Below, piece by piece: positions 1-13,968 of a DNA stretch of 64,000 nucleotides. Position 1 is the stretch's first letter. Each line of letters begins with the position of its first letter. The notes beneath the pieces are model-generated. The model was not told where the DNA came from. It saw only the letters and a list, made by a program, of their open reading frames with translations, and ran no database searches. The position numbers were made by a program, and so were the translations under genes. Source of the stretch: Candidatus Eiseniibacteriota bacterium. Its GTDB lineage: Bacteria; Eisenbacteria; RBG-16-71-46. The stretch covers positions 416,001-480,000 of the forward strand of contig OY970342.1 in assembly GCA_963717505.1 (NCBI GenBank), written 5' to 3'.

Positions 1-610
1 CCGTCGGCTTGGCGCGGACGATCTCGCGCACCAGCACCCGAGTGTTCTCGAGCAGCCGATCCTCGGTGAACGAGGCCTTGCCGACCGGAGCATGGATGTT
101 GGCGCCCTTGTCGACGCGGAACTCGATCTTGCCGGACTTGAGCTCGCGCACCGCCTTGGCGACGTCGAACGTCACCGTGCCGCTCTTGGGATTGGGCATC
201 AGGCCGCGCGGGCCCAGGACGCGCCCGAGCTTGCCGACCTCACCCATCATGTCGGGGGTGGCGACGATCGCGTCGATGTCCAGCCAGCCTTCCTGGATCT
301 TCTTCACGAATTCGTCCGCTCCGGCGAAGTCGGCGCCAGCCTCGCGCGCCTCGCGTTCCTTGTCGCCTTTGCACAGGACGAGCACGCGCAGGCTCTTCCC
401 GGTGCCGTGCGGCAGCACGACCGTCCCGCGCACCAGCTGATCCGAATGCCGAGGATCGACACCCAGGTGCGAGGAAATGACGATCGTTTCGTCGAACTTG
501 GCCCGGGCGGTTTCCTTGACCAGCTTGACCGCCTCGGCCAGGGACCGCACCGGCCCGGCGCGCCGCGCCAGCTCCGCCGCCGCGCGATAGCGCTTACCTT
601 GCTTCATCAT
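1..610 (-). CDS. rplA: 50S ribosomal protein L1 (3' end runs off window)
   Basis: Manual translation MMKQGKRY...[36 protein letters not shown]...[11 protein letters not shown]; GGAGG SD; follows rplK. Confidence 0.97.
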
Positions 611-616
611 TCCTCC

Positions 617-650
617 CGTGGTTCGAGCGTGGCGTTCCGCCACTCCCACG
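617..650 (-). promoter_or_regulatory. L1-binding autoregulatory mRNA leader
   Basis: Minus strand CGTGGGAG-tggcggaacgcca-cgCTCGAACCACG hairpin with GGGAG/GAA internal loop directly before the rplA SD; matches the known L1 leader shape. Confidence 0.75.
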
Positions 651-749
651 TCGTGGACGCGCGATCACCGCGCGCCCTGCGCTCCAGCAGTTCGCGACCC
701 ATCGCTCCGATGCGGCGGGCCTGCAACGGCTCCCGCCGAGAACCGGACG

Positions 750-950
750 TCAGGCGCCCTCGTCCTCGACCGCTTCCAACTCGGCCTCGGTGGCGTAGCC
801 TTCGTTCACCACCCAGTCGAGCGTGTCGAAGAAGTCGTTGATGCTCGCGCCTGGCGCTTTCGCGACCCGTTCGCGGACGATCTCGTAGATCTCCCGCGGA
901 GTCTTGCCGCGGAGCAGAACTTCAGCGTCTTCCTTGTCCAGACGAACCAT
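750..950 (-). CDS. Small acidic hypothetical protein (66 aa) between rplK and rplA
   Basis: [29 protein letters not shown]...AVEDEGA; AAGGA SD; GC3-biased codons; natural protein-like composition. Confidence 0.75.
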
Positions 951-966
951 CCGGTTCCTTCCCCCC

Positions 967-1392
967 TTAGCCCTCGACCTCGATTCCCATGCTGCGGGCC
1001 GTTCCCGCCACCATTCGCTCGGCCGCATCCAGCGTGGCCGAGTTGAGATCGGGAGCCTTGAGCTCGGCGATCTCGCGCACCTGTGCGCGAGACACCTTGC
1101 CCACCTTGTTCCGATTCGGTACGCCCGAGCCCTTGGCCAGGCCCGCCGCGCGCTTGAGCAGCACGGCGGCCGGGGGCGTCTTGGTGATGAACGTGAACGA
1201 ACGGTCGTTGTACACGGTGATGACGACCGGGATCACGAGCCCCGCCTGTTGCTGGGTTCGAGCGTTGAACTGCTTGCAGAACTCCATGATGTTGATGCCG
1301 TGCTGGCCGAGCGCCGGACCCACCGGCGGCGCCGGCGTCGCGTTGCCGGCGTTGCACTGCAGCTTGACCACCGCGGTAATCGGCTTCGCCAT
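967..1392 (-). CDS. rplK: 50S ribosomal protein L11
   Basis: [26 protein letters not shown]...GTARSMG. Confidence 0.99.
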
Positions 1393-1419
1393 CGGAACGC
1401 CCCTCGCCTGAGCCGGTCG

Positions 1420-1980
1420 CTAGACCGGCTGCACCTGCAGGAAGTCGAGCTCCACCGGGGTCGCGCGCCCGAAGATGCTCACCATGACCTTGACCTTGCC
1501 GCGCTCGTTGTTGACTTCGTCCACCACGCCGTTGAAGGCGCTGAACGGTCCGTCGACCACCTTGACGTGATCGCCGACGCGGAACGTGACGGTCGGAACC
1601 GGTTTCGATCGGGTCTGTTCGATCTGACCCAGGATGCGGCGAACTTCGTTTTCCTTGAGCGCGATCGCGCTCTGACCCGATCCAATGAAGCGCGTCACGC
1701 CCGGCACGTTCTGCACCAGATGGCGCGTTTCGTTGTTCAGGTCCATTTCGATCATCACGTACGAAGGAAAGGTCTTGCGCTTGGAGGTCTTGCGCTTGCC
1801 GTCCTTCATCTCGACGTAGTCCTCGGTCGCCACCAGGATCTGGCCGAACATCTCCTGAAGTCCGGCGCTGGCGATCGCCTTCTCGAGGTTGGTCTTCACT
1901 TTGTTCTCGTGCCCCGAATAGGTGTGAATCACATACCACTTCTTTTCCATGGTCATTCCCGATGCGTCGCTCGTGCTCAT
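1420..1980 (-). CDS. nusG: Transcription termination/antitermination factor NusG
   Basis: [12 protein letters not shown]...DGPF...[14 protein letters not shown]; start either 1980 (ATGA overlap with secE) or 1950. Confidence 0.98.
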
Positions 1981-2165
1981 CGGAACAACAACTCGACGCC
2001 GCGGGACAGAACCTGGTCGACGATCCCGACGAACACCGCGACGATGATCACCGTCACGATGACGACGATCGTCGAATCGCGCAGCTCGTTCCGGGTCGGC
2101 CAGCTCACTTTCGTGGCCTCGACACGGACGTCCTTGACGAACTCTCTGATTCGATCGGTCACCAT
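1977..2165 (-). CDS. secE: Preprotein translocase subunit SecE
   Basis: [13 protein letters not shown] motif plus one TM helix; canonical position. Confidence 0.97.
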
Positions 2166-2229
2166 GCGTTTTCCTGACCCTCGACCCACCCATGGCCGGA
2201 CGCGCCACACCGGCGCTCCCGCCCGACAC

Positions 2230-2307
2230 TGGCAGGCCTGGAGGGATTTGAACCCCCGACTCCCGGTTTTGGAGACCGGTGCTCTAGCCAGACTGAGCTA
2301 CAGGCCT
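2230..2307 (-). tRNA. tRNA-Trp(CCA)
   Basis: AGGCCTGTAGCTCAG...CTCCAAA...GGTTCAAATCC...GCCA cloverleaf. Confidence 0.97.
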
Positions 2308-2367
2308 GCCTCGTCATTGCAGACCGCGGCTGCCGTCCGGTCTGCCCGGGCGCCGGCCTCGGTCCGG

Positions 2368-2517
2368 TCAGCGCGTCTCCTTGTGCGCGGTGTGCTTGCG
2401 GCACGCCGAGCAATACTTCTGGCTCTCCATCCGATCCGGATGCAGGCGCTTGTTCTTCTTCGTGATGTAGTTGCGGCGCTTGCAATCGTTGCAGGCGAGC
2501 ACAATCTGGTCGCGCAT
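2368..2517 (-). CDS. rpmG: 50S ribosomal protein L33 (Zn-ribbon type)
   Basis: Manual translation [49 protein letters not shown]. Confidence 0.97.
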
Positions 2518-2529
2518 GATTCCCCCGCG

Positions 2530-3729
<1,200 letters not shown>

Positions 3730-3837
3730 TGCTCAGGTCCCCTGATCGAAGTTGCGGTTTTGGAGCTCCTACACCTTCACGCTGCTGTGGCCGGCGGCCG
3801 TCCCTCACTCCTGCCGGGAACGGCGCGCCCGTGCAGG

Positions 3838-3913
3838 TGGAGCCCACGAGCGGAATCGAACCGCTGACCTTTTGCTTACCATGCAAATGCTCTACCGACT
3901 GAGCTACGTGGGC
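3838..3913 (-). tRNA. tRNA-Thr(GGT)
   Basis: GCCCACGTAGCTCAG...ATGGTAA...GGTTCGATTCC...TCCA. Confidence 0.96.
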
Positions 3914-4076
3914 TGACGACTGGCCAACCGGACGCGTCACCGTGGGATGAAACCGACGAGATGGGTGCGCCGCCCTGGAAACTCGCGACGTCGCTCAGCG
4001 TGAAGGAACAGAAGACGCACTACCCCGAGGCGACTTCCCTCGGTGGAAAGTCGTCGGGGATGCGCGTGAGCCGGGA

Positions 4077-4105
4077 AACATAGTGGCGCGAATCGCCTAT
4101 GTCAA
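4077..4105 (-). promoter_or_regulatory. Sigma70-type promoter for tRNA-Thr/tuf operon
   Basis: TTGACA-17 nt-TATGTT. Confidence 0.75.
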
Positions 4106-4264
4106 CGCGGAATCGGCAGTTTCGGGTCATTTCAGGTCACGGGCCGAGGCCCGGCCCAAGGCCCGACCGCTCTTGGTTGGCTCCGAATCCAGCAGCCGCC
4201 GAGAAGTCAGGTTTGTGCAAAACCTGCTGCTGGCGGGGCTAGGGACCGTGCGGCTTTGAGGAAA

Positions 4265-4340
4265 TGGAGCGGGAGACGGGACTCGAACCCGCGACATCCA
4301 GCTTGGAAGGCTAGAGCTCTACCAACTGAGCTACTCCCGC
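4265..4340 (-). tRNA. tRNA-Gly(TCC)
   Basis: GCGGGAGTAGCTCAG...CTTCCAA...GGTTCGAGTCC...TCCA. Confidence 0.97.
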
Positions 4341-4371
4341 CCGGGAACTACCGCAAAGACCCCAAACCGAA

Positions 4372-4456
4372 TGGTGGAGGGGGGAGGATTCGAACCTCCG
4401 AAGGCTACGCCGACAGATTTACAGTCTGTTCCCTTTGACCGCTCGGGAACCCCTCC
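4372..4456 (-). tRNA. tRNA-Tyr(GTA)
   Basis: GGAGGGGTTCCCGAG...CTGTAAA, long variable arm, ...ACCA. Confidence 0.97.
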
Positions 4457-4507
4457 AGAACCAAGCGCGCAGCGCGGGCCAGCCGCCCATCACCACACGG
4501 GGCAACG

Positions 4508-4580
4508 AGCTGGCGAAGGGACTCGAACCCCCAACCACCTCATTACAAATGAGATGCTCTACCAATTGAGCTACGCCAGC
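4508..4580 (-). tRNA. tRNA-Thr(TGT), CCA not encoded
   Basis: GCTGGCGTAGCTCAA...TTTGTAA...GGTTCGAGTCC...CCAGCT. Confidence 0.95.
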
Positions 4581-4606
4581 ACCGATCGAGCGCCGGACCG
4601 GAGCGA

Positions 4607-5083
4607 CTAGCCCGGGTACGGAGGAACCGCCAACGACCGAACGTGCTTCAACACGGCCTGGATCTCGGCCTCCGAGAGCACACTCTTCCACGCCGGCATG
4701 GCGCCCTTGCCCTCGTGAATCACCAGGAGCACCGCCTCGTCGGATAGCGCGTTCATGTAGGCGCCGTCCGTGTGATTCCGAGGCTTCGGATTGAGGCTCG
4801 CCGACGCGGGGCCATCTCCCTTGCCTTCCGGGCCATGACAAAGCGCACAGCGCTGCGAATAGATCTGGGCGCCATCGAGAACCACCGTCGTCGTACCGGT
4901 TTGGGTCGTCGTACCACCATCTGCGGGTTGGTTGGTCGCGTTGTCCGGCGCCGGCGTCGACTCGGACGAGCCACCGCCGCAACCAACCAGGACTGCGTGA
5001 CCGAGCGCCAGAGCGACGAACAACGCCGCCAGCGCGGACATCGGGCGGGCGCGAAACGCGCTTACAGCTGAAGGGGTTTTCAT
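4607..5083 (-). CDS. Monoheme cytochrome c (class I), probable lipoprotein
   Basis: CALCH heme motif, G..GDGP..ASLNPKPR, MPAW axial Met; hydrophobic signal ending LVGC. Confidence 0.92.
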   Translation of the reverse strand: MKTPSAVSAFRARPMSALAALFVALALGHAVLVGCGGGSSESTPAPDNATNQPADGGTTTQTGTTTVVLDGAQIYSQRCALCHGPEGKGDGPASASLNPKPRNHTDGAYMNALSDEAVLLVIHEGKGAMPAWKSVLSEAEIQAVLKHVRSLAVPPYPG

Positions 5084-5090
5084 GGGCGGC

Positions 5091-5120
5091 AACATAGCAT
5101 CGCCGTCCGATGGGCTTCAA
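5091..5120 (-). promoter_or_regulatory. Sigma70-type promoter, leaderless start at cytochrome c ATG
   Basis: TTGAAG-18 nt-TATGTT, then 7 nt, then ATG (5083); no SD. Confidence 0.55.
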
Positions 5121-5143
5121 CAGGGCGGGGGTGCCCAAAATCG

Positions 5144-5176
5144 AAAAGGCAGCCGAGGAATCTCTTCTCGACTGCC
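5144..5176 (-). terminator. Intrinsic terminator of putative sRNA
   Basis: GGCAGTCGAG-aagagattc-CTCGGCTGCC followed by TTTT. Confidence 0.8.
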
Positions 5177-5518
5177 TCTTCCCGAGAGTACAGGGAGTGA
5201 CCGGGATGAACCCCACTGTCCTCCCGGCTTCGTTGACCGGGCGTATTTAGTTTTGTGTGCAAACTACAAGCGAACGAACTGCTCCACTTCGAGAAGACTT
5301 TTCCTTGCTGCGCTCACCCCCCTTGGTTCACTTGCACCTAAGTGGGCCACGAGCCTCGGAGCTCATCGCTCCGACATCGAGCCGTCACGATCCGGGGGGG
5401 CCTGGACGATCGCTCCGCCGATGGAGGTGCCAACCTTGCGGTGCGAGGTCCAGGCTTCCGAGCCCCTCTTCCCCCTATGGGCAACCCCTGAACCGTGAAC
5501 TAAAACCCCGTATCCGGC
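5144..5518 (-). ncRNA. Putative sigma54-dependent structured sRNA (~370 nt)
   Basis: Bounded by -24/-12 promoter and terminator; no credible ORF; stems GCCTGGAC/GTCCAGGC, TCGGAGC/GCTCCGA, ACC-GCAA-GGT; SD-like purine tracts. Confidence 0.65.
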
Positions 5519-5527
5519 GGATGACTA

Positions 5528-5544
5528 AAGCACCCGCCGTGCCG
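5528..5544 (-). promoter_or_regulatory. Sigma54 -24/-12 promoter
   Basis: CGGCACGGCGGGTGCTT: GG-N10-GC with GGCACG. Confidence 0.75.
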
Positions 5545-5583
5545 AGTCCTTCACGTCGTCCAAACAAAACTGCGTTCTCTGCA

Positions 5584-5596
5584 CAACTCGTTGATA
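5584..5596 (-). promoter_or_regulatory. IHF binding site
   Basis: TATCAACGAGTTG is an exact match to WATCAANNNNTTR, between promoter and enhancer. Confidence 0.7.
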
Positions 5597-5664
5597 AGCA
5601 ACGCTATGCGTGCCGTGGAGCCGATCACCGAATGCCGCCGATTACGAGGGGTCGAGTGTTTCGT

Positions 5665-5682
5665 TGTTACGGGGAGGTAACA
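5665..5682. promoter_or_regulatory. Upstream activating sequence (bEBP enhancer)
   Basis: Perfect inverted repeat TGTTAC-N6-GTAACA about 150 bp upstream of predicted TSS; extra TGTTAC half-site at 5747-5752. Confidence 0.65.
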
Positions 5683-5851
5683 GCTTCGGGGGGCTCGTCC
5701 GAGGTGGCGGATGGCTTATCGATTGTGCGACAACGAATTGTAGGCTTGTTACCCGCGGGCAGGCGGAACCGCTCGAGGAAACGAAACCACGGAGCACCAC
5801 GAGCGTCAGGTTGTTGGCCGGAAAGAAGTCGCCGGTGGGGCCGCGAGCGCT

Positions 5852-8242
5852 CTAGTTCAGCTCGATGCCGAGCCGGCGCAGCCGCGCGTAGAGCGTCTTC
5901 CGGCTGACGCCCAGAATCTCGGCGGTGCGGCTCTTGTTGCCCGCGGCTTCGGCGAACGCGGAAAGAATGCGAGACCGCTCACTCTCGACCGGACGGCCGG
6001 TCGAATCGCCGGGCTCCAGGTATGCGAGCAAATCGAGGGCTTCGATCGCCTGATTGCCGGCGGACAGAGCCGCGACTCGCTTCATCACGTTCTCGAGTTC
6101 GCGAACGTTCCCGGGCCAGGCGTAGGACGCCAGAATGGCCTCGGCGCCCGACCCGAGGCGCGGCCCGTCGATGCCTCCGTAGAACGCGAGGAAATGCCGG
6201 GCGAGCGGGACGATATCCTCCCGCCTTTCGCGCAGTAACGGCACCTGGATTTCGATCTCGTTCAAACGGAAGAGAAGATCGCGGCGGAATGAAGCCTCGC
6301 CGCGCGAGCCACGTAGCTCGCGGTTGGTCGCCGAGATCACCCGCACGTCCGACCTGCGAACCTGCGTCTCGCCCAGCCGGATGTACTCGCCGCTCTCGAG
6401 GAAGCGGAGCAGCGTGACCTGGACGTCGTGCGGCAGCTCGCCCACTTCGTCCATGAACAGGGTGCCGCCATCGGCGGCTTCGACCAGCCCGATGCCTTCG
6501 GCGTGGGCGCCGGTGAATGCACCCTTCCGGTGTCCGAACAACTGCGAAAGGGCCAGGTCCGGTCGCAGTGCGCCGCAGTTCACCGCCAGGAACCGCCCGG
6601 TCTGCCGCGCCGAGAGCCCGTGGATCGTGCGCGCAATGAGCTCCTTCCCGGTGCCGGTTTCGCCGGTGATCAGGACGCTGAGCTCGGTGGCCGCGGCCCG
6701 CTGGGCCAAGGCTTCGACCCGGCGCATCCCCTGGGAACAGGCCACCATGCCGGGAGCACGATGGCGTCGGCCGTTGGTCGACACTGCCTCGATGGCTGGC
6801 GCTTCGCCCGCCTGAGCCTGGCGGCGCAATTCTTCTTCCGCCTGGTCCACCCAGTGGGTGGTGCCCAGGTCCGAGAACAATGCGACGGAGCGATAGAGCG
6901 CGCGCCGTCCCTCGTCGGTGTTCGGCGTGATGCGCCCCAGGTCGAGCAGGCTCCGGCCGAGTTCGAAACGCTCGTTGCACGCCGTCACCAGGTCGACGCA
7001 TCTGCGGGCGAAGTCCCGCGCCTCATCGCGACGGTCGCGGGCGCGGGCCAGCCAGGTACGCGCACGGAACGTCAGGGCATGCTCGAGCCGGTCTTCGATC
7101 CGATCCGCCAGACCCGCGGCACGCTCGCACGCGGCACCGGCCTCGTCGAGACGTCCGAGCTGAATCAGAACCTCGGCGCGCCGGCGCTCCAATTCGACGA
7201 CCAGATCACCTTCGCCGGCGATCCGCTCGGCCCGCGGCAGTGCTTCGTCGTAGCGGGCCAGTGCCGCCTCTGGCCGTCCGCGTTCGGCGTCGAGCTCGCC
7301 CAGGAACTCGAGCGCCAGGCACTCTTCCCGCTGCGCCGACTGCTCCCGTGAGCGACGCAGGGCGTCGAGCAGCCGCGTCTCGGACTCCACGAAGCGTTGG
7401 CGCAGCCGCGCGAGGTTGGCGAGTCCGATGTCGACCGCGGCCAGCCGGAGCTGGTCGCCGACCTGCTCGAACACCTGTCGCGCCTGCGAATAGCAGACTC
7501 CGGACTCGTTCCAGTCGCCGCGCTTCTGGTGAACGATTCCCAGGTGGAGCAGCGCGGTGCCGGTCTCGGCGAAACGTCCGGAGCGCCGCCGGATCTCGAG
7601 CGCACCGGTGAACTGCTGCACCGCCTGGTCCCATTCGCAGCGGTTCTTGTGGATCAGGCCGAGATTGCCGCGCACCACGGCACAGCTCAGCTCATCGCCG
7701 GCGCGCGTGTGGAATGCGAGGGCTTGCTCGTAGTTGGAACGGGCCGTGTCGAGGTCGCCTTCGCGATAGGCAACCCGACCCAGGAGGTTGAGCGCCTGCC
7801 CCATGAGCGTGAAGTCCGCTGCCTTCTGAGAACGCTCGAGGCCAGCCCGAGAAGCGTCGGCAGCCTCGGGTAGCCGGGACAGCCGGAACAGGGCCTCGGC
7901 CACCAGGAGGTGCAGGCGGCCGCGGGTTGCGAACGAGCCGATCGCCGGCTCGTCCCTCAAGGCCTCGCGACCATGCGCGAGTGCCCCTTGGGCGTTGCCC
8001 TGTGCGAGTCGGCAGGTAATCGCCTTGCAATCGAGGATCGCCCGGCGCGCAGCCGACAGCCCACGCGCCTCCGGCAACTGGAGCAGACGATCGATCGTCT
8101 CCAGGGCGGGCACGTAACTGTCCGCCTGCAGGTACAGATCGACCAGCATGCTCAAGTCCGCGACGCGCCCATCAGTGCGCGGCGCCTCGAACGCGAGCCG
8201 CTCCTCGAGCGATACAATGCGATCGTGGTCGTATCCCGGCAC
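5852..8242 (-). CDS. TPR-domain sigma54 enhancer-binding protein (TPR array, AAA+, Fis-type HTH)
   Basis: ~480 aa of TPR-like helical repeats (LNLLGRVAYREGD, NLGLIHKNRCEW, LGIVHQKRGDW); GETGTGKE, SQLFGHRKGAFTGA, FMDE, WPGNVREL, NKSRTAEILGVSRKTLY. Confidence 0.95.
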   Translation of the reverse strand: MPGYDHDRIVSLEERLAFEAPRTDGRVADLSMLVDLYLQADSYVPALETIDRLLQLPEARGLSAARRAILDCKAITCRLAQGNAQGALAHGREALRDEPAIGSFATRGRLHLLVAEALFRLSRLPEAADASRAGLERSQKAADFTLMGQALNLLGRVAYREGDLDTARSNYEQALAFHTRAGDELSCAVVRGNLGLIHKNRCEWDQAVQQFTGALEIRRRSGRFAETGTALLHLGIVHQKRGDWNESGVCYSQARQVFEQVGDQLRLAAVDIGLANLARLRQRFVESETRLLDALRRSREQSAQREECLALEFLGELDAERGRPEAALARYDEALPRAERIAGEGDLVVELERRRAEVLIQLGRLDEAGAACERAAGLADRIEDRLEHALTFRARTWLARARDRRDEARDFARRCVDLVTACNERFELGRSLLDLGRITPNTDEGRRALYRSVALFSDLGTTHWVDQAEEELRRQAQAGEAPAIEAVSTNGRRHRAPGMVACSQGMRRVEALAQRAAATELSVLITGETGTGKELIARTIHGLSARQTGRFLAVNCGALRPDLALSQLFGHRKGAFTGAHAEGIGLVEAADGGTLFMDEVGELPHDVQVTLLRFLESGEYIRLGETQVRRSDVRVISATNRELRGSRGEASFRRDLLFRLNEIEIQVPLLRERREDIVPLARHFLAFYGGIDGPRLGSGAEAILASYAWPGNVRELENVMKRVAALSAGNQAIEALDLLAYLEPGDSTGRPVESERSRILSAFAEAAGNKSRTAEILGVSRKTLYARLRRLGIELN

Positions 8243-8283
8243 AACGGTCTCCGGTCAACGCTGACTACGTCGATGGATTCGGC

Positions 8284-8628
8284 TTACAGCTGGAGCCAAA
8301 GCCCTCGCTGCCACAGCCGAATCAGGTACAAACGCCACATCCCAAAGCTCTGAGCCAGCGAATCGTCACCCGCGATTCCCGAACCCAGATGCTGCGATCC
8401 GATCGCCACCCGCCCCTGGTTGACCTTGCTGGACTTGCCCGAGCCTTCGGGCTGGTCCGGATCACCCAAGCCGTTTCCGCCTCCCGCACCTGGATCGTCG
8501 TACGTGATCCCTTGGAACGGGTCGGCTGAAACGTGTGCGGGTGCCGCGGCACAGACAACCAGTGCCGCGAGCAGCGTCAGGATGATGGCTCCCCGCCTAT
8601 TCGTTTTGAACCAGGACATGAAACCCAT
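8284..8628 (-). CDS. Small secreted protein / putative signalling-peptide precursor
   Basis: Sec signal (TNRR-GAIILTLLAALVVCAAAPAHVSA), Gly/Asp/Pro-rich core with DDP..GDPDQP, aromatic amphipathic C-terminal helix; 41 nt upstream of bEBP; start 8628 or 8619. Confidence 0.75.
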   Translation of the reverse strand: MGFMSWFKTNRRGAIILTLLAALVVCAAAPAHVSADPFQGITYDDPGAGGGNGLGDPDQPEGSGKSSKVNQGRVAIGSQHLGSGIAGDDSLAQSFGMWRLYLIRLWQRGLWLQL

Positions 8629-8778
8629 CCTCACTTCCCAGAACGACACCGCGGCCGACATTCAGCCGCATGGTCAAATGCGAATGCCCCTGCGACACGA
8701 CCGGCCTGCGGACGGAATACTGGATACGGGGTGACCGCAAGCCACCGGGTCTGAACAGGGGGGATCCGCTCGAAAACG

Positions 8779-8807
8779 AGGCTAGACCCGTGACTGCGGT
8801 ACGTCAA
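8779..8807 (-). promoter_or_regulatory. Sigma70-type promoter for secreted protein-bEBP operon
   Basis: TTGACG-17 nt-TAGCCT with upstream T-tract. Confidence 0.65.
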
Positions 8808-8941
8808 GAAAAAGGAAGGCCGCCCGGACTGGTTCCAGCCCAGGGACCTTGGCGCCGGCGCCGAGTGGGAATGGACCGGGCTCATCCCTGACAACTCCTT
8901 GACGAAACCGCTTGGGGGTCCTATCAGTCCGTCAGGAGCAT

Positions 8942-10333
8942 CTACTTCCGGCGGATCTTGGGACCCTGGGCGCCGTCTTCGACCACAGCCCCCAACCGCG
9001 CCAGCTCGTCGCGCAGGGCATCGGCCCGTTTCCAGTCCCGGGCCTTGCGGGCCGCCTCGCGCTGGTCCACCAGCTGGAGGATTTGGTCGTCCCAGGTATC
9101 GGCAGCCGGCCGCTTCCAAAAGAGACCCAAAATTCCACCCAGCTGGAGCAACGTCCCGGCGCCGGCACGGGCCTCGGGGTCCCGGCCCTCGTCGAAGGCG
9201 CGATTGACGTGGCGGGAGAAGTCGAACAGGGCGCCGATCGCCTTGGCGCTGTTGAAGTCGTCGTCCATGGCATCCCGGAATTCACGACCGGCCTGGGCCG
9301 CAGCGTCGGCGATCGATCCGGCGACCGGGGGCGCTTCCTTCGCATCCCAGAGATCGGCCCGCTCGAGGGGCGAGCGCAGCCTCTGGTAGGCCACTCCCGC
9401 CTCGGCCAGACGCTCCTCGTTGAAGTCGATCGGACTTCGATAGTGCGTCGAGAGCAGGTAGAAGCGGACCACCTCAGGATCGACGCGGGCGGCAATGTCC
9501 TCGGCGAAGAACAGATTCCCGGTGCTCTTCGACATCTTCTCGCCGCCCAGGTTCACCATACCGTTCTCGCACCAGAAGTGGGCAAAGGACTTACCGGTCG
9601 CCCCCTCGGACTGGGCGATCTCGTTCTCATGGTGGGGGAAGATCAGGTCCTGGCCGCCACCGTGAATGTCGAATGTCTCCCCCAGGTACTTCATCGCCAT
9701 CGCCGAGCACTCGATGTGCCAGCCGGGTCGACCCGGACCCCACGGAGAATCCCAGGCCGGCTCCCCCGGCTTGGCGCCCTTCCACAGGGCGAAATCGAGG
9801 GCGTCGCGCTTCGCCTCCCCCGGCTCGATGCGATAGCCCTCGCGCATGTCGTCGACCCGGCGTCCCGAGAGTTTGCCGTAGTCGGCTTTGCTGCGGACGT
9901 CGAAGTAGACGTCGCCGCCGGCCGCGTAAGCGTGGCCGCGCTCGATCAGCTGCCGGATCATCGCGTGCATCTCGGGAATGTGCTCCGTCGCCCGCGGATA
10001 GTGCGTGGCCGGCTTGATGTTGTGCAGGGCGGCGACCTTGAGGTAGGCGTCGATGTTGCGTTGGCTCACCGACTCGTAGCCCAGCCCCTCTTCGTTCGCG
10101 CGCGCGATGATCTTGTCGTCGACGTCGGTGAAGTTGTAGAGGTAGGTCACCTCGTATCCCAGGAACTCGAGATAGCGGCGCATGATGTCGCCCGACATCG
10201 ACGAGCGAATGTGGCCGACGTGCGGCCGATTCTGAACCGTCATGCCGCACACGTACATGCCGACCTTCCCCGGCGTGACCGGCGAGAACTCCCGCTTGTC
10301 GCGCGACAGGGTGTCGTAGATCCGCAGCGTCAT
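8942..10333 (-). CDS. cysS: Cysteine--tRNA ligase
   Basis: [33 protein letters not shown]. Confidence 0.99.
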
Positions 10334-10370
10334 CGGCCCCCCGGTGGCCGGTGCCTGGTCGACGAAACGG

Positions 10371-11429
10371 TCACGTCAGGCTTGCGACTGTCTTCTGGTC
10401 GAGACGCTTCACCAACGCGACCAGCAGTTGGACGGTCTTCTCGAAGTCGCGGTAGTCGATGATGCTGACGTGGCTGTGGATGTAGCGGGTCGCACAGCCC
10501 ATCGCGATCGACGGCACACCCTCGCCGTGCAGGTGGATGCGGCCGATGTCGGTGCCTCCCCGCTCGACGGACTCGAATTGGAGCGGAATCCGCAAGCGGC
10601 GCGCGGTATCGATCACCAGATCGAGCAGTCGGCGGTTGGGAATCGCGGTCGCGTCGTAGATCACTACCAGCGGGCCGCCGCCCAGCTTCTCGTCGCCTTC
10701 GGTGCCCGGCGTGTCGTGGGCGATCCCGGTGTCGAGTGCGATCGCCACGTCGGGTCGGGTCTTGAACGCCGCCGTCTGAGCACCCCGCAGCCCGACTTCT
10801 TCCTGGGCGGTCGCGACCGCAAGCAGCGTGTTGGGATGCTTCACGCCTTTGAGCCGGCGCGCGGTCTCGGCGGCGAGCGCGCATCCGAGGCGGTTGTCCC
10901 ACGCCTTGGCCAACAGCAGGTCGGGGTTGGCCATGACGGTGAACGACGAATCGGGAACGATCGGGTCGCCGGGGCGGATGTCGAGCTTCTTCCTCACGTC
11001 GAAGTCCGAGGTCGCACCGACGTCGAGGTAGAGCTCGCGAATCTCGAGCACCTTCTTGCGGTCCTCATCGCGCAGCTCGTGCGGCGGCTTGGACCCGGCG
11101 ACCGCCAGCACATCGCCTTTTCGCGTCTTGATGATGAAGCGCTGCGCGAGCACCACGTGTCCCCACCAGCCCCCGAGCTGGAGGAACTTGACGAAGCCGT
11201 CCTTGGTCACCGACTTCACCATGAAGCCGACTTCGTCCAGATGTCCGGCGAGCATGACCCGCGGCCCGGAACCGCCGACCTTCTCGCAGACGAAACTGCC
11301 GAGCCGGTCGCGCGTGATCGCGCCAATGCCTTTGAGGTGCCGCGCCATCACCGCGGCGACTTCGTGTTCGAATCCCGGCACGCCGTGGGCTTCGACCAGC
11401 TCCTTGAGAAACTGCGTCGTCCGATCCAT
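10371..11429 (-). CDS. M42 family aminopeptidase
   Basis: AGHLDEVG, KAWDNR, QEEVGLRGA, GGTD, RYIHS. Confidence 0.95.
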   Translation of the reverse strand: MDRTTQFLKELVEAHGVPGFEHEVAAVMARHLKGIGAITRDRLGSFVCEKVGGSGPRVMLAGHLDEVGFMVKSVTKDGFVKFLQLGGWWGHVVLAQRFIIKTRKGDVLAVAGSKPPHELRDEDRKKVLEIRELYLDVGATSDFDVRKKLDIRPGDPIVPDSSFTVMANPDLLLAKAWDNRLGCALAAETARRLKGVKHPNTLLAVATAQEEVGLRGAQTAAFKTRPDVAIALDTGIAHDTPGTEGDEKLGGGPLVVIYDATAIPNRRLLDLVIDTARRLRIPLQFESVERGGTDIGRIHLHGEGVPSIAMGCATRYIHSHVSIIDYRDFEKTVQLLVALVKRLDQKTVASLT

Positions 11430-11476
11430 GAATGCTCCTGCAGCAGGGTGGGTGCGGGACGGGGGAGCCCGCGGGG

Positions 11477-12517
11477 TCAGGTGGCGGGGTCGACCTCGTG
11501 CGTGTCCTCGCGGACGCGGCGGTGGCGGCGGCGCCAGTCTTCGATCGCCAGGTCGAGCATGCGCGCGACCAGCTGATCGTAGGACATGCCGCACGCACGC
11601 GCCGCCATCGGCACCAGACTGGTCGGGGTCATGCCGGGAACCGTATTGACTTCCAGACACCACGGGGCGCCCGCCGGATCGAGCCGGAAGTCCGTGCGCG
11701 AGACCCCGCGGCATCCGAGCACGCGCGACGCGCGCAGGCCCAGTTCGCGGACCCGCTCGGCGAGTGCCGCCGGCAGATCCGCCGGACAGAAGTACTCGCT
11801 CTTGCCCGCGGTGTACTTCGACTCGTAGTCGTAGTGGCCGCCCTGCGGCCGGATCTCGACGATCGGCAGCGCCTCGTCACCCAGAACCGCGACCGTCAGC
11901 TCGCGGCCCGGGATGTACTGCTCGATCAGGACCTCGGGGCCGTGCTCGAAAGCCAGATCCAGGGCTTCGGCCAGATCGTCGGCGCGGCTGACGATGGTCA
12001 ATCCGACGGTCGAGCCTTCGGCGTTCGGCTTGACCACGAGCGGGTAGCCCCCCAGCGCCGTGGCATCGACCAACGTGTCGCCGGCGCGCACCAGGCGCCA
12101 CCGAGGCGTCGGGACGCCCTCGCGTTCGAAGACGCGCTTGGCCATCGCTTTGTCCATGGCCAGAGCACTCGCGAGCACGCCCGAGCCGGTGTACGGACGG
12201 CCGGCGAGCTCGAGCAGGGCCTGGACGGTGCCGTCCTCCCCCGCGCCACCGTGCAACGCGACGAATACGACGTCGGCCTCGCCGAGCGCCGGCGCTTCGG
12301 CCAGCGCGGCCGCCGAGCGCTCGGGCAGGCGGCGCACGGCTTCGGCGGGCAGCGCGGCCTTGGCTTCGTCGCCCGGCGGCAGCAGGCGGCCATTCGCCGC
12401 ATCGATCGCCAGCACCTCGTGGCCGAGATGTTTGAGCGCCTGAACCACGCCCTGGCCGGTTCGGAGCGAGATCTCGCGCTCGGCCGATCGGCCACCCATG
12501 AGGACTGCGACTTTCAT
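11477..12517 (-). CDS. ddl: D-alanine--D-alanine ligase
   Basis: GGRSAEREIS, LHGGAGEDG, YDYESKY, LEVNTVPG. Confidence 0.98.
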   Translation of the reverse strand: MKVAVLMGGRSAEREISLRTGQGVVQALKHLGHEVLAIDAANGRLLPPGDEAKAALPAEAVRRLPERSAAALAEAPALGEADVVFVALHGGAGEDGTVQALLELAGRPYTGSGVLASALAMDKAMAKRVFEREGVPTPRWRLVRAGDTLVDATALGGYPLVVKPNAEGSTVGLTIVSRADDLAEALDLAFEHGPEVLIEQYIPGRELTVAVLGDEALPIVEIRPQGGHYDYESKYTAGKSEYFCPADLPAALAERVRELGLRASRVLGCRGVSRTDFRLDPAGAPWCLEVNTVPGMTPTSLVPMAARACGMSYDQLVARMLDLAIEDWRRRHRRVREDTHEVDPAT

Positions 12518-13968
12518 CGAGGCCTTTCGGTTGACGGCGACCGCGCGGCCGCAGCGCGCAATCGCGCGACGCAGCGGTCACGACCCAGCGCTTCGGCGAT
12601 TCGCGGCAACTCGGGTCCATGCGTGCGCCCGGTCAACGCCGCGCGCACCGGCTGGTGGAGTTCGCGGCCTTTGACGCCCAGTCGCGCGCCGGTTTCGTGA
12701 AGGGCGGATTTAATCCGCTCGGGACTCCACTCCGCAAGCGAGCCGAGGGCCTCGGCCCATGCCGCGCAGACCTCGGGCGCGCGAGCGGCCTCGAGGCTCG
12801 CGCGCGCTTCGGGCTCGAACGCGGGCGGATCGGTCATGTAGGGCTCGAGCTCGCGATCCAACTCCGCCAGGGTGGTCACGTTGCCCCGCACCAGCTCGAG
12901 CCAACGGCGCACCTCCTCGGGAGAGCGGCCCTGGAGCCCGGCCGGAAGCAGCTCGCGGCTCCAGCGTTCCAGCTCCTCGCCGCTCGCGTGATGCAGGTAG
13001 TGGGCGTTGACCCAGCGCAGCTTGTCGGGATCGAACACCGAGCCGCTGGCGCCGACACGATCGAGGGTGAACGCCTCGAGCAACTCGGTGCGCGTGAGGA
13101 TTTCGCGGTCGTCCCCCGGATGGAACCCGAGCAGGGCCAGATAACTGAGCAGCGCTTCCGGAACGAACCCATTGCGCCGGTAGTCCCCGACCGCGACCGC
13201 GGCCTCGCCCTCGCGCTTGCTCATCTTGCTGCGGTCGCGGTTGAGGATCAACGGCACGTGCGCATAGGTCGGAGGCGTTTCGCCCATGGCCTCGAGCAGC
13301 ATGAGCTGCCGTGGCGTGTTCGGGAGGTGCTCCTCGGCGCGGATCACGTGGCTGATGCGCATCGCGGCGTCGTCCACGGCGCACGCGAAGTTGTACGTCG
13401 GCAGCCCGTTCGAGCGCAGGAGGACGAAGTCCCCGACCATGCCCGCCGGGAAGCGAACTTCGCCGCGAACCCGATCCTCGAGCACCCAGTCGCGGTCGGG
13501 CACCGTGAATCGAATGCTCGCCGGGCCGCCGGCCCCGCGCGCAGCGCGCTCGGCGGCCGAAAGCGCGCGACAGCGGCCGTCGTAGTGCGGCGGCCGGCCG
13601 GCCGCGAGGGCGGCGCGCCGGCGTGCCTCGAGTTCCTCATCGGTGCAGAAGCAGGGATAGGCCCGCCCGCGGCCGACCAGATCCTCGGCGCGCGCGCGAT
13701 AGAGATCGAGTCGCTCGCTCTGCCGGTAGGGCCCATAGGGACCGCCGCGATCCGGGCCCTCGTCCCATTCGAGGCCGAGCCAGCGCAGGTCGTCGAGCAC
13801 CCCCGACTCGCTCTCGGCGCTCGAGCGAGCGAGGTCGGTGTCCTCGACCCGGATCACGAACACGCCGCCGCTCTGGCGCGCGAACAGCCAGTTGAAGTAG
13901 GCGGTGCGGGCGCCCCCCACGTGCAGCCATCCGGTCGGGCTGGGCGCGAAGCGAACACGAACGCTCAT
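12514..13968 (-). CDS. gltX: Glutamate--tRNA ligase
   Basis: RFAPSPTGWLHVG, KMSKR, anticodon-binding domain. Confidence 0.97.
   Translation of the reverse strand: MSVRVRFAPSPTGWLHVGGARTAYFNWLFARQSGGVFVIRVEDTDLARSSAESESGVLDDLRWLGLEWDEGPDRGGPYGPYRQSERLDLYRARAEDLVGRGRAYPCFCTDEELEARRRAALAAGRPPHYDGRCRALSAAERAARGAGGPASIRFTVPDRDWVLEDRVRGEVRFPAGMVGDFVLLRSNGLPTYNFACAVDDAAMRISHVIRAEEHLPNTPRQLMLLEAMGETPPTYAHVPLILNRDRSKMSKREGEAAVAVGDYRRNGFVPEALLSYLALLGFHPGDDREILTRTELLEAFTLDRVGASGSVFDPDKLRWVNAHYLHHASGEELERWSRELLPAGLQGRSPEEVRRWLELVRGNVTTLAELDRELEPYMTDPPAFEPEARASLEAARAPEVCAAWAEALGSLAEWSPERIKSALHETGARLGVKGRELHQPVRAALTGRTHGPELPRIAEALGRDRCVARLRAAAARSPSTERPR

Follow-up and report, generated by a model that had tools for sequence, protein, structure and literature searches.

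A conserved non-coding RNA gene of a new family beside a sigma-54 activator gene in Candidatus Eisenbacteria

Analysis of a stretch of 64,000 nucleotides from a Candidatus Eisenbacteria genome (assembly GCA_963717505.1, contig OY970342.1, positions 416,001 to 480,000; in the following the window) revealed a real non-coding RNA gene that is conserved and transcribed and represents a new family. The source genome (G000) has a size of 4.16 Mb in a single contig and was scored 86.68% complete. On the minus strand, the 3' end of an activator gene is followed by a palindrome, an IHF-like site, a -24/-12 box, an RNA of about 380 nt, a terminator hairpin, and a cytochrome c gene. The RNA was classified as a new family because it has no Rfam match, its promoter, upstream activator sequence (UAS), and synteny are conserved, its helices covary, and contigs from RNA libraries are confined to the predicted transcript. 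Thus, the proposal of a first-pass annotation, made from the sequence alone, that a new small RNA (sRNA) family lies beside its activator was supported. As explanation of the whole locus, we favor with moderate confidence a trans-acting regulatory RNA of an undescribed family that would be driven by sigma-54 and the activator and would act by base pairing, with feedback on the activator.

Comparison of window positions 1-12000 with 4227 Rfam families, judged by E-value, resulted in no match for the RNA, as had been expected in the first-pass annotation, but only in tRNAs and two weak tRNA-cluster hits. Qrr, CrcZ, GlmY/GlmZ, CsrB/Rsm, 6S, tmRNA, and RNase P all have families in this database. 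A housekeeping RNA was ruled out by the missing Rfam match, by ARAGORN, which reported tRNAs only, and by the location of tmRNA, 6S, and RNase P elsewhere in the source genome. With regard to coding potential, the three frames across the core were open in 31, 43, and 30 out of 52 sequences, and their starts did not agree, so that no open reading frame (ORF) was conserved; the earlier statement that the region holds no convincing ORF was borne out, and the mini-ORFs proposed inside it were not conserved in these sequences.

BLAST analysis of 41 related genomes detected the conserved core (window 5254-5172) in 30 of them, and 20 loci were fetched. When the genomes of 185,579 species were scanned for exact matches to a 19-mer of the core, 73 stretches were obtained, nearly all labelled as metagenome-assembled genomes (MAGs) of Candidatus Eisenbacteria; altogether this resulted in 93 loci with 74 distinct sequences. 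Where at least 1000 nt of flank were available, which was the case for 71 distinct loci, an activator homolog was always found upstream on the same strand (71/71), and cysS was located farther upstream in 18 of 18 loci. The main class consists of 64 distinct sequences, whose 52 representatives are 319-546 nt long (median 453) and whose matches to our core model R1 scored 124-143 bits, compared to 39-69 bits for a short class of nine distinct loci without the middle islands. R1 matched the window at 5136-5257 with 130.3 bits and, in a sample of 151 genomes from across the phylum, detected the core in 58, namely in 51/59 genomes of family f1 and 6/6 of f3 (including the unpublished G026), with 0/3 in f2 and 0/82 in all other families. 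The RNA therefore has an observed range of two families, which belong to one order of Candidatus Eisenbacteria, with one copy per genome apart from one genome with two (G012; L011, L052, L084). In G012 the whole module of activator and RNA is present twice on different contigs, and the activator gene lies upstream of both copies. Four loci carried labels of other lineages (L041, Terriglobales; L062, Saccharimonadaceae; L070, Verrucomicrobiia; L074, Limnocylindria) and harbored the full RNA at 124-143 bits and, where the flank allows, the activator too; they are probably mis-binned or mislabelled MAG contigs. Locus L053, labelled as a Phycisphaerae MAG, was rejected as a chance hit, since its 19-mer lies inside an ORF of 1008 aa and R1 gave 18 bits.

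The sigma-54 promoter cGGCACG-N4-gTGCT (CGGCACGGCGGGTGCT) was assigned to 5529..5544 of the minus strand based on its sequence and conservation; the box had been claimed before with its end at 5528, one base off the 5544-5529 found here. It shows the GG at -24 and the GC at -12, at the fixed spacing, that characterize sigma-54 promoters (TGGCACG-N4-TTGCW). A single box of the form TGGCAYG-N4-NTGCW was located 213-385 nt upstream of the conserved core in all 20 BLAST-found loci, and 90 of the 93 related loci had such a box 173-446 nt upstream of the conserved RNA core. Of the three loci without it, one is the chance hit L053, and the upstream flank of the other two is shorter than 320 nt.

Farther upstream, the putative UAS, a palindrome TGTTAC-N6-GTAACA (5665..5682, 138 nt upstream of the -24 box), was confirmed where it had been placed (5682-5665). 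The exact pattern TGTYAC-N5-12-GTRACA occurs only once in the 4.16-Mb genome, at the RNA locus. Allowing at most one mismatch, either copy of the palindrome was detected in 61 of 65 main-class loci and both copies in 51 of 65, compared to 2 of 1300 shuffles. The proximal copy is positioned at about -139 (59/65 loci) and the distal one at about -210 (53/65); the window carries the proximal copy only. With the same tolerance, the source genome harbors 20 palindrome sites, and a sigma-54-like box is found within 300 nt at the RNA locus only. Based on this unique pairing, the RNA gene looks like the dedicated target of the adjacent activator, with the TGTYAC-N-GTRACA palindromes as its predicted binding sites, and we infer that transcription of the RNA depends on sigma-54 and on this activator.

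Between the UAS and the promoter lies the IHF-like site TATCAACGAGTTG (= WATCAANNNNTTR) at 5584..5596 of the minus strand. IHF sites in this position are common at sigma-54 promoters without being obligatory. The exact IHF consensus gave one match in the 64-kb window versus 0.08 expected, but only 1 of 65 relatives possessed it, while a degenerate site (at most two mismatches) was present in 36 of 65 loci compared to 163 of 1300 shuffles, with an AT-rich peak at -70..-40. The exact consensus reported before is thus present at 5596-5584, and it is a degenerate AT-rich version that is enriched among the relatives. Apart from this exact site, the motifs for which conservation in relatives had been asked, the -24/-12 box and the palindrome, were kept together with the synteny.

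The sigma factor itself is encoded in the source genome, where a Sigma54_DBD domain was detected at G000:C1:3872746-3873223 (-). The DNA-binding domain of this rpoN, the only sigma-54 gene found, is split over two overlapping frames (profile positions 2-44 and 43-160), which is a frameshift or assembly error. The source genome contains 153 sigma-54-like boxes in its 4.16 Mb and encodes about 30 sigma-54 activator domains, which points to an unusually heavy use of sigma-54 in this organism.

The predicted transcript extends over 5137..5518 of the minus strand, its 5' end being set by the spacing from the -12 element and its 3' end by the terminator. The non-coding transcript proposed in the first-pass annotation was supported, though with a length of about 380 nt (about 5518 to about 5138) instead of about 370 nt, and its fold revealed a z-score of -3.03. 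As suggested there, homologous intergenic regions were checked for covariation, and strong covariation was found in the 3' core: the model comprises 29 pairs, 17 of them with compensatory changes, 95.2% of cells were paired, none of 500 shuffles reached the observed values, and slid controls were 46-57% paired. Helix 1 of this model (16 pairs, 11 with two-sided changes, 95.3% of cells paired) forms the core hairpin at 5182..5227, minus strand, whose 12-nt loop contains a second CCCGGUCA (5198-5205). Helix 2 (13 pairs, six with two-sided changes, 95.0% of cells paired) belongs to the terminator at 5137..5181, also minus, with the stem GAAGAGGCAGUCG...CCUCGGCUGCCUUUUC followed by GAUUUU (UUUUCGAUUUU), that is, a GC-rich hairpin at 5181-5143 and GATTTT at 5142-5137. 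The intrinsic terminator described earlier is thus present with its GC-rich stem and U tract, and the stem covaries; a simple terminator pattern scan did not flag hairpin 5181-5143, because its T run is interrupted. Adjacent to the core hairpin, the segment AAUACGCCCGGUCAACGAAG (5228..5247, minus) with an A-rich linker before it is the proposed seed. Its 19-mer was unchanged in 20 of 20 BLAST-found loci and is unpaired in the covariation-supported model.

In the remaining part of the RNA, islands defined on the 20-locus alignment are separated by variable hairpins, and the MAFFT alignment of the whole 5' domain was too poor for RNAalifold. All of the islands are given on the minus strand. In most loci, the 5'-end motif CGGAUACGGGG (5506..5516) is offset by a constant 29 from the T of TGGCAC; it is the proposed 5' strand of a long-range helix P1, whose 3' strand would be the island GAGGCUCGUGGCCC (consensus GGGGCUCGUACCC, 5344..5357). 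RNAalifold paired UACGG of the former with CUCGUA of the latter (GCUCGUA); since both strands are conserved, there is little covariation. In relatives, the G-rich island AUAGGGGGAAGAGGGG (5463..5478) supplies, as judged by eye, the loop of a short hairpin together with its 3' arm.

A long hairpin at 5401..5454 with the apical loop GCACCUCC (5423-5430) corresponds to the island GCACCUCCAUC of the alignment and contains the 7-mer CACCUCC, which is also present at the 3' end of the source genome's 16S rRNA. With the motif held unpaired, at least 10 enclosing pairs were obtained in 44 of the 44 RNAs having it (median 24 versus 14 with shuffled flanks); in 93% of these RNAs, its predicted probability of being unpaired was above 0.5. 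Covariation of this hairpin was partial, with compensatory changes in six of seven alifold pairs. The SD-like (Shine-Dalgarno-like) island AAGGGGGGUGAGCG (5311..5324; GAAAGGGGUGAGAG in the alignment, GGAGGUGA in some short-class RNAs) is kept in the main class and in some RNAs of the short class, is predicted to be mostly paired (mean unpaired probability 0.25), and is followed by no start codon. The SD-like tracts listed in the first-pass annotation hence correspond to conserved islands. Covariation between the CACCUCC loop and this SD-like island was considered and rejected, since their variants do not track each other. By eye, GGGCUCGUACCC (5344-5357) and GGGGUUCAUCCC (5198-5216) on the minus strand show a likeness to the T-arm and T-loop of tRNAs, and one relative has GGGCUCGAAUCCC in place of GGGCUCGUACCC.

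Parts of the stretch were present in 20 public runs, 18 of which are on record as RNA, and contigs of four of them (X1, X2, X3, and X9) were aligned. Runs X1 and X2 contributed a 247-nt contig at 5150-5396 with 100% identity; the contigs of both runs are the same, and they are probably one data set filed twice. Run X3 revealed a 219-nt contig at 5272-5490, again 100% identical, and the X9 contig (271 nt) matched 5242-5510 and showed 11 differences; the core of the RNA was also covered by shorter pieces, which stem from relatives. All aligned contigs, derived from three or four studies, were confined to 5150-5510 within the predicted transcript, and the stretches without contig cover (below 5150 and above 5510) were not counted as evidence of absence. 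The transcript predicted for metatranscriptomes was thus recovered as contigs lying only inside its limits, but contigs cannot show the ends expected at about 5518 and about 5144. This recovery suggests that the RNA is highly abundant.

For the proposed seed, a candidate target was identified in the 5' leader of the activator gene. The site CGUUGACCGG (8251..8260, minus) is perfectly complementary over 10 nt to CCGGUCAACG in the seed, the pairing partners being CCGGUCAAC in the RNA and GUUGACCGG in the leader; it overlaps the SD sequence GGAG (8252-8249), which lies 7 nt before the GTG start (8242-8240). When the conserved 20-mer was compared with activator leaders, most main-class loci had their best duplex at positions -22..+3 relative to the start, on a conserved motif, cgTTGACCGGAG-N7-GTG, of the activator translation initiation regions (TIRs). 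Perfect complements of at least 7 nt were found in 21 of 31 distinct main-class TIRs, whereas shuffling the targets gave 28 of 1550 and shuffling the seeds 78 of 1550, and the mean energy of the duplex between seed and TIR was -16.7 kcal/mol versus -11.3 kcal/mol for shuffled sequences (standard deviation 2.6). Across all loci, 14 complements of at least 10 nt were detected, and the four recurring at one place are those in the activator TIR. We estimate the chance probability of the match between seed and TIR at about 1e-2 to 1e-4. Altogether, this complementarity suggests that the seed may pair with the ribosome-binding region of the activator mRNA in a negative feedback like that of Qrr on luxO.

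Other potential targets were considered as well. A HAD hydrolase gene, which ranked at the top of an energy-ranked scan of 18,917 candidate starts with a 16/19 complement upstream, was rejected, since the complement was not conserved in 24 orthologous loci (-17.4 versus -17.7 for shuffled sequences); the test for complementarity is thus able to reject a candidate. The motif GUGACCGGAG was located before the start codon of three more genes, encoding a kinase-STAND protein (motif internal), a FlgD_ig protein, and an L,D-transpeptidase, which have no common theme. A genome-wide search for long antisense targets of six conserved segments with at most two mismatches led only to the opposite strand of the RNA gene or to uninformative sets, and neither the cytochrome c leader compared with the seed, loop 2, and the CACCUCC loop nor the activator leader compared with the CACCUCC loop gave better values than shuffles. 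In addition, a 13-nt complement CGTTGACCGGGCG was observed within gltX, at its 3' end and at a distance of about 7 kb from the RNA gene. The RNA seed is also the exact complement of TTGACCGG, which is frequent in the source genome (187 copies; 51 observed versus 17.9 expected for CGTTGACCGG) and often has TAnnnT 17-18 nt downstream, for example at window 12626-12638 (-); TTGACCGG looks like an extended -35 box of this lineage.

Based on these results, base pairing with feedback on the activator is the most likely mode of action of this riboregulator, a view drawn from sequence comparison and fold prediction. The adjacent enhancer-binding protein, composed of TPR, AAA+, and HTH domains, would bind one or two TGTYAC-N-GTRACA palindromes about 140 and about 210 bp upstream and, together with the sigma-54 holoenzyme, would fire the -24/-12 promoter; transcription would stop at the conserved intrinsic terminator. 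The RNA is predicted to fold into hairpins around the conserved islands, exposing AAUACGCCCGGUCAACGAAG as a single strand and the second CCCGGUCA in a hairpin loop. The AAUACGCCCGGUCAACGAAG stretch may then serve as the seed that pairs with (U)UCGUUGACCGGAG-N7-GUG of the activator mRNA, so that the SD sequence would be occluded and the activator would be subject to negative feedback, as in the case of Qrr and luxO. Further targets would be expected.

Several observations weigh against this explanation. Within the 64-kb window, the sigma-54 pattern with at most two mismatches gave five matches versus 4.93 expected, which is not significant alone, so that the case for the promoter comes from its conservation in relatives and not from the frequency of the box. 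The invariance of the 19-mer in 73 of the 93 loci is given by construction through exact-match retrieval and is tested only by the 20 BLAST-found loci. Neither strand nor ends nor level can be read from contigs, and DNA may be present in RNA libraries. Typical base-pairing sRNAs are much smaller and less structured than this RNA, and of the traits of Hfq-dependent sRNAs, the terminator and the A-rich linker are present, but Hfq itself was not found by the Pfam search of the source genome at its 86.68% completeness. In 10 of the 31 main-class TIRs the complement was at most 6 nt long, and no complementarity was seen in five TIRs of the short class though the seed is conserved there; feedback on the activator can therefore not be the sole reason for conservation of the seed, which must have other partners. 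Since the loci are related by descent, they are not independent, and effectively one conserved motif matches another. Finally, as TTGACCGG is common as a -35-like box, the TIR motif could be conserved for another reason.

The first-pass annotation had named two modes of action, sponge and base pairing, and a target in the ribosome-binding region of the activator could be predicted for the latter; the former we regard as unlikely, though it is the best of the alternatives. As a sponge or decoy, the RNA would titrate an RNA-binding protein through the twin CCCGGUCA or through its G-rich GGA loops. CrcZ for Hfq/Crc, GlmY for RapZ, and CsrB for CsrA are models of such decoys, and the length of 319-546 nt is within the size range of CrcZ and CsrB. 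Its contigs were found even in small libraries of 42-134 million letters, the conserved octamer is displayed twice (as a linear single strand and in a loop), and conserved G-rich and GGA-containing islands are present in a genome that encodes CsrA. Decoys driven by sigma-54 are known as well, according to passages on CrcZ/CbrB (PMC8657755) and GlmY/QseF (PMC7073468). However, the octamer occurs in two copies only and conserved GGA sites are few, the islands with GGA having been picked by eye. Of 151 genomes of the phylum, CsrA was detected in 132, and families lacking the RNA are among these (f2 3/3, f10 30/32, f13 10/10), so that no specific co-occurrence is seen. Hfq as partner was not found in the source genome, and no partner gene is linked to the locus, as the upstream ORF of 125 aa was conserved in 0 of 32 loci. 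A pure sponge would leave the complementarity between seed and TIR unexplained.

We give little credence to binding of the RNA to the core machinery of the cell. Here, it would dock on the 30S subunit or on RNA polymerase via its anti-SD mimic, its SD-like tracts, and its T-loop-like hairpins and would alter global expression. The exposure of GCACCUCC in the apical loop of all 44 RNAs having it, with CACCUCC common to the 3' end of 16S rRNA, would fit this idea, as would the SD-like islands, conserved without an ORF, the very strong conservation of the islands, and the seemingly high abundance of the RNA. In its most far-reaching form, which seems equally improbable, the RNA would go beyond a usual base-pairing sRNA and be a large, abundant multi-domain RNA that docks on the 30S subunit or RNA polymerase and reprograms global expression upon a signal from the TPR activator, like 6S for the sigma-70 holoenzyme, with the seed as exact complement of the putative -35 box. 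Against binding to the core machinery, the CACCUCC hairpin is missing from 8 of the 52 representatives and from the short class, the use of SD sequences in the source genome looks weak (17% versus 12% in a control window, by a crude count), and the T-loop likeness was judged by eye.

It appears very unlikely that the RNA acts in cis, as leader or attenuator, on the cytochrome c gene located 3' of it (4607-5095, minus), which has the same orientation. Of 56 distinct loci, 29 have a cytochrome c homolog not farther than about 950 nt downstream and 27 do not, a covarying terminator closes the RNA, no aligned contig spans from the RNA into the gene, and the seed gave -15.95 against the cytochrome c leader versus -16.04 for shuffled sequences. 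An mRNA for one or more small proteins, as could be imagined from the SD-like tracts and from ORFs of 48 and 60 codons in the window, is hardly credible, since no core frame is open throughout, starts are inconsistent, a 19-nt stretch is invariant at every codon position across 20 genera, and the helices covary.

The activator gene at 5852..8242 of the minus strand encodes a protein of 796 aa with N-terminal TPR repeats, an AAA+ domain for interaction with sigma-54, and a Fis-type HTH. Pfam matches were obtained for Sigma54_activat (4.8e-60), TPR_12 (5.1e-29), AAA_lid_14, and HTH_8, while the same search found no receiver domain. Wider neighbors are housekeeping genes, namely gltX, ddl, an M42 peptidase gene, and cysS upstream and a tRNA cluster and tuf downstream. 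In the latter region (window 2230-4580, minus), just 3' of the cytochrome c gene, the tRNA genes (Thr, Tyr, Gly, Thr) are accompanied by tuf and tRNA-Trp. The 125-aa ORF between cysS and the activator gene (window 8284-8661, minus) revealed no Pfam match, had a homolog in none of 32 related loci, and is possibly not a real gene.

Similar arrangements are known from other bacteria. The gene crcZ, encoding an RNA of about 400 nt, is located directly downstream of cbrB, which is the layout found in this locus, and the Pxr sRNA of Myxococcus, named as analog in the first-pass annotation, lies beside the gene of an NtrC-like regulator; the comparison of Pxr with our RNA was made through the negative Rfam search only. 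Compared to Qrr RNAs, the RNA described here is about four times longer. In Vibrio, qrr1 adjoins luxO, as stated in part of one report (PMC8043402), and a passage of another describes that phosphorylated LuxO and sigma-54 activate the qrr genes and that Qrr RNAs repress translation of luxO (PMC3730234). As far as these passages go, both systems share an sRNA gene with a -24/-12 promoter beside the gene of an NtrC-family sigma-54 activator, the feedback on the activator being only predicted in our case. In contrast to Qrr1/LuxO, our RNA has no Rfam match, its activator harbors TPR repeats with no receiver domain found, and Hfq was not found. The excerpt on CrcZ, CrcY, and CrcX of Pseudomonas and Azotobacter presents them as non-coding RNAs dependent on RpoN and an enhancer-binding protein (PMC8657755). 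Unlike CrcZ, which has several A-rich motifs that sequester Hfq/Crc, the RNA of this study has a single A-rich linker, in addition to the missing Hfq and Rfam match. GlmY of Enterobacteria, in the part of the source that deals with it, is a decoy RNA with a sigma-54 promoter under the enhancer-binding protein QseF/GlrR (PMC7073468). In comparison, GlmY is a decoy for RapZ without a base-pairing site, and Rfam indicated no homology to our RNA.

A literature search on sigma-54 and RNA motifs revealed nothing in print on RNA regulators of Candidatus Eisenbacteria, and the conserved 16-mer had no occurrence. The group is represented here by MAGs only. The RNA family, its architecture, and the lineage are new, while the kind of regulation is already known; the family would be new for annotation of the Rfam type. 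The layout of Qrr/LuxO and CrcZ/CbrB is now seen in a distant, apparently Hfq-less lineage. As a whole, the locus presents a complete testable circuit: a one-component TPR sensor-activator with its unique enhancer would switch on a sigma-54 promoter, and the structured RNA made from it, which seems to be abundant, would act on a predicted feedback site. The RNA may also be a possible marker transcript for the activity of Eisenbacteria in soil metatranscriptomes.

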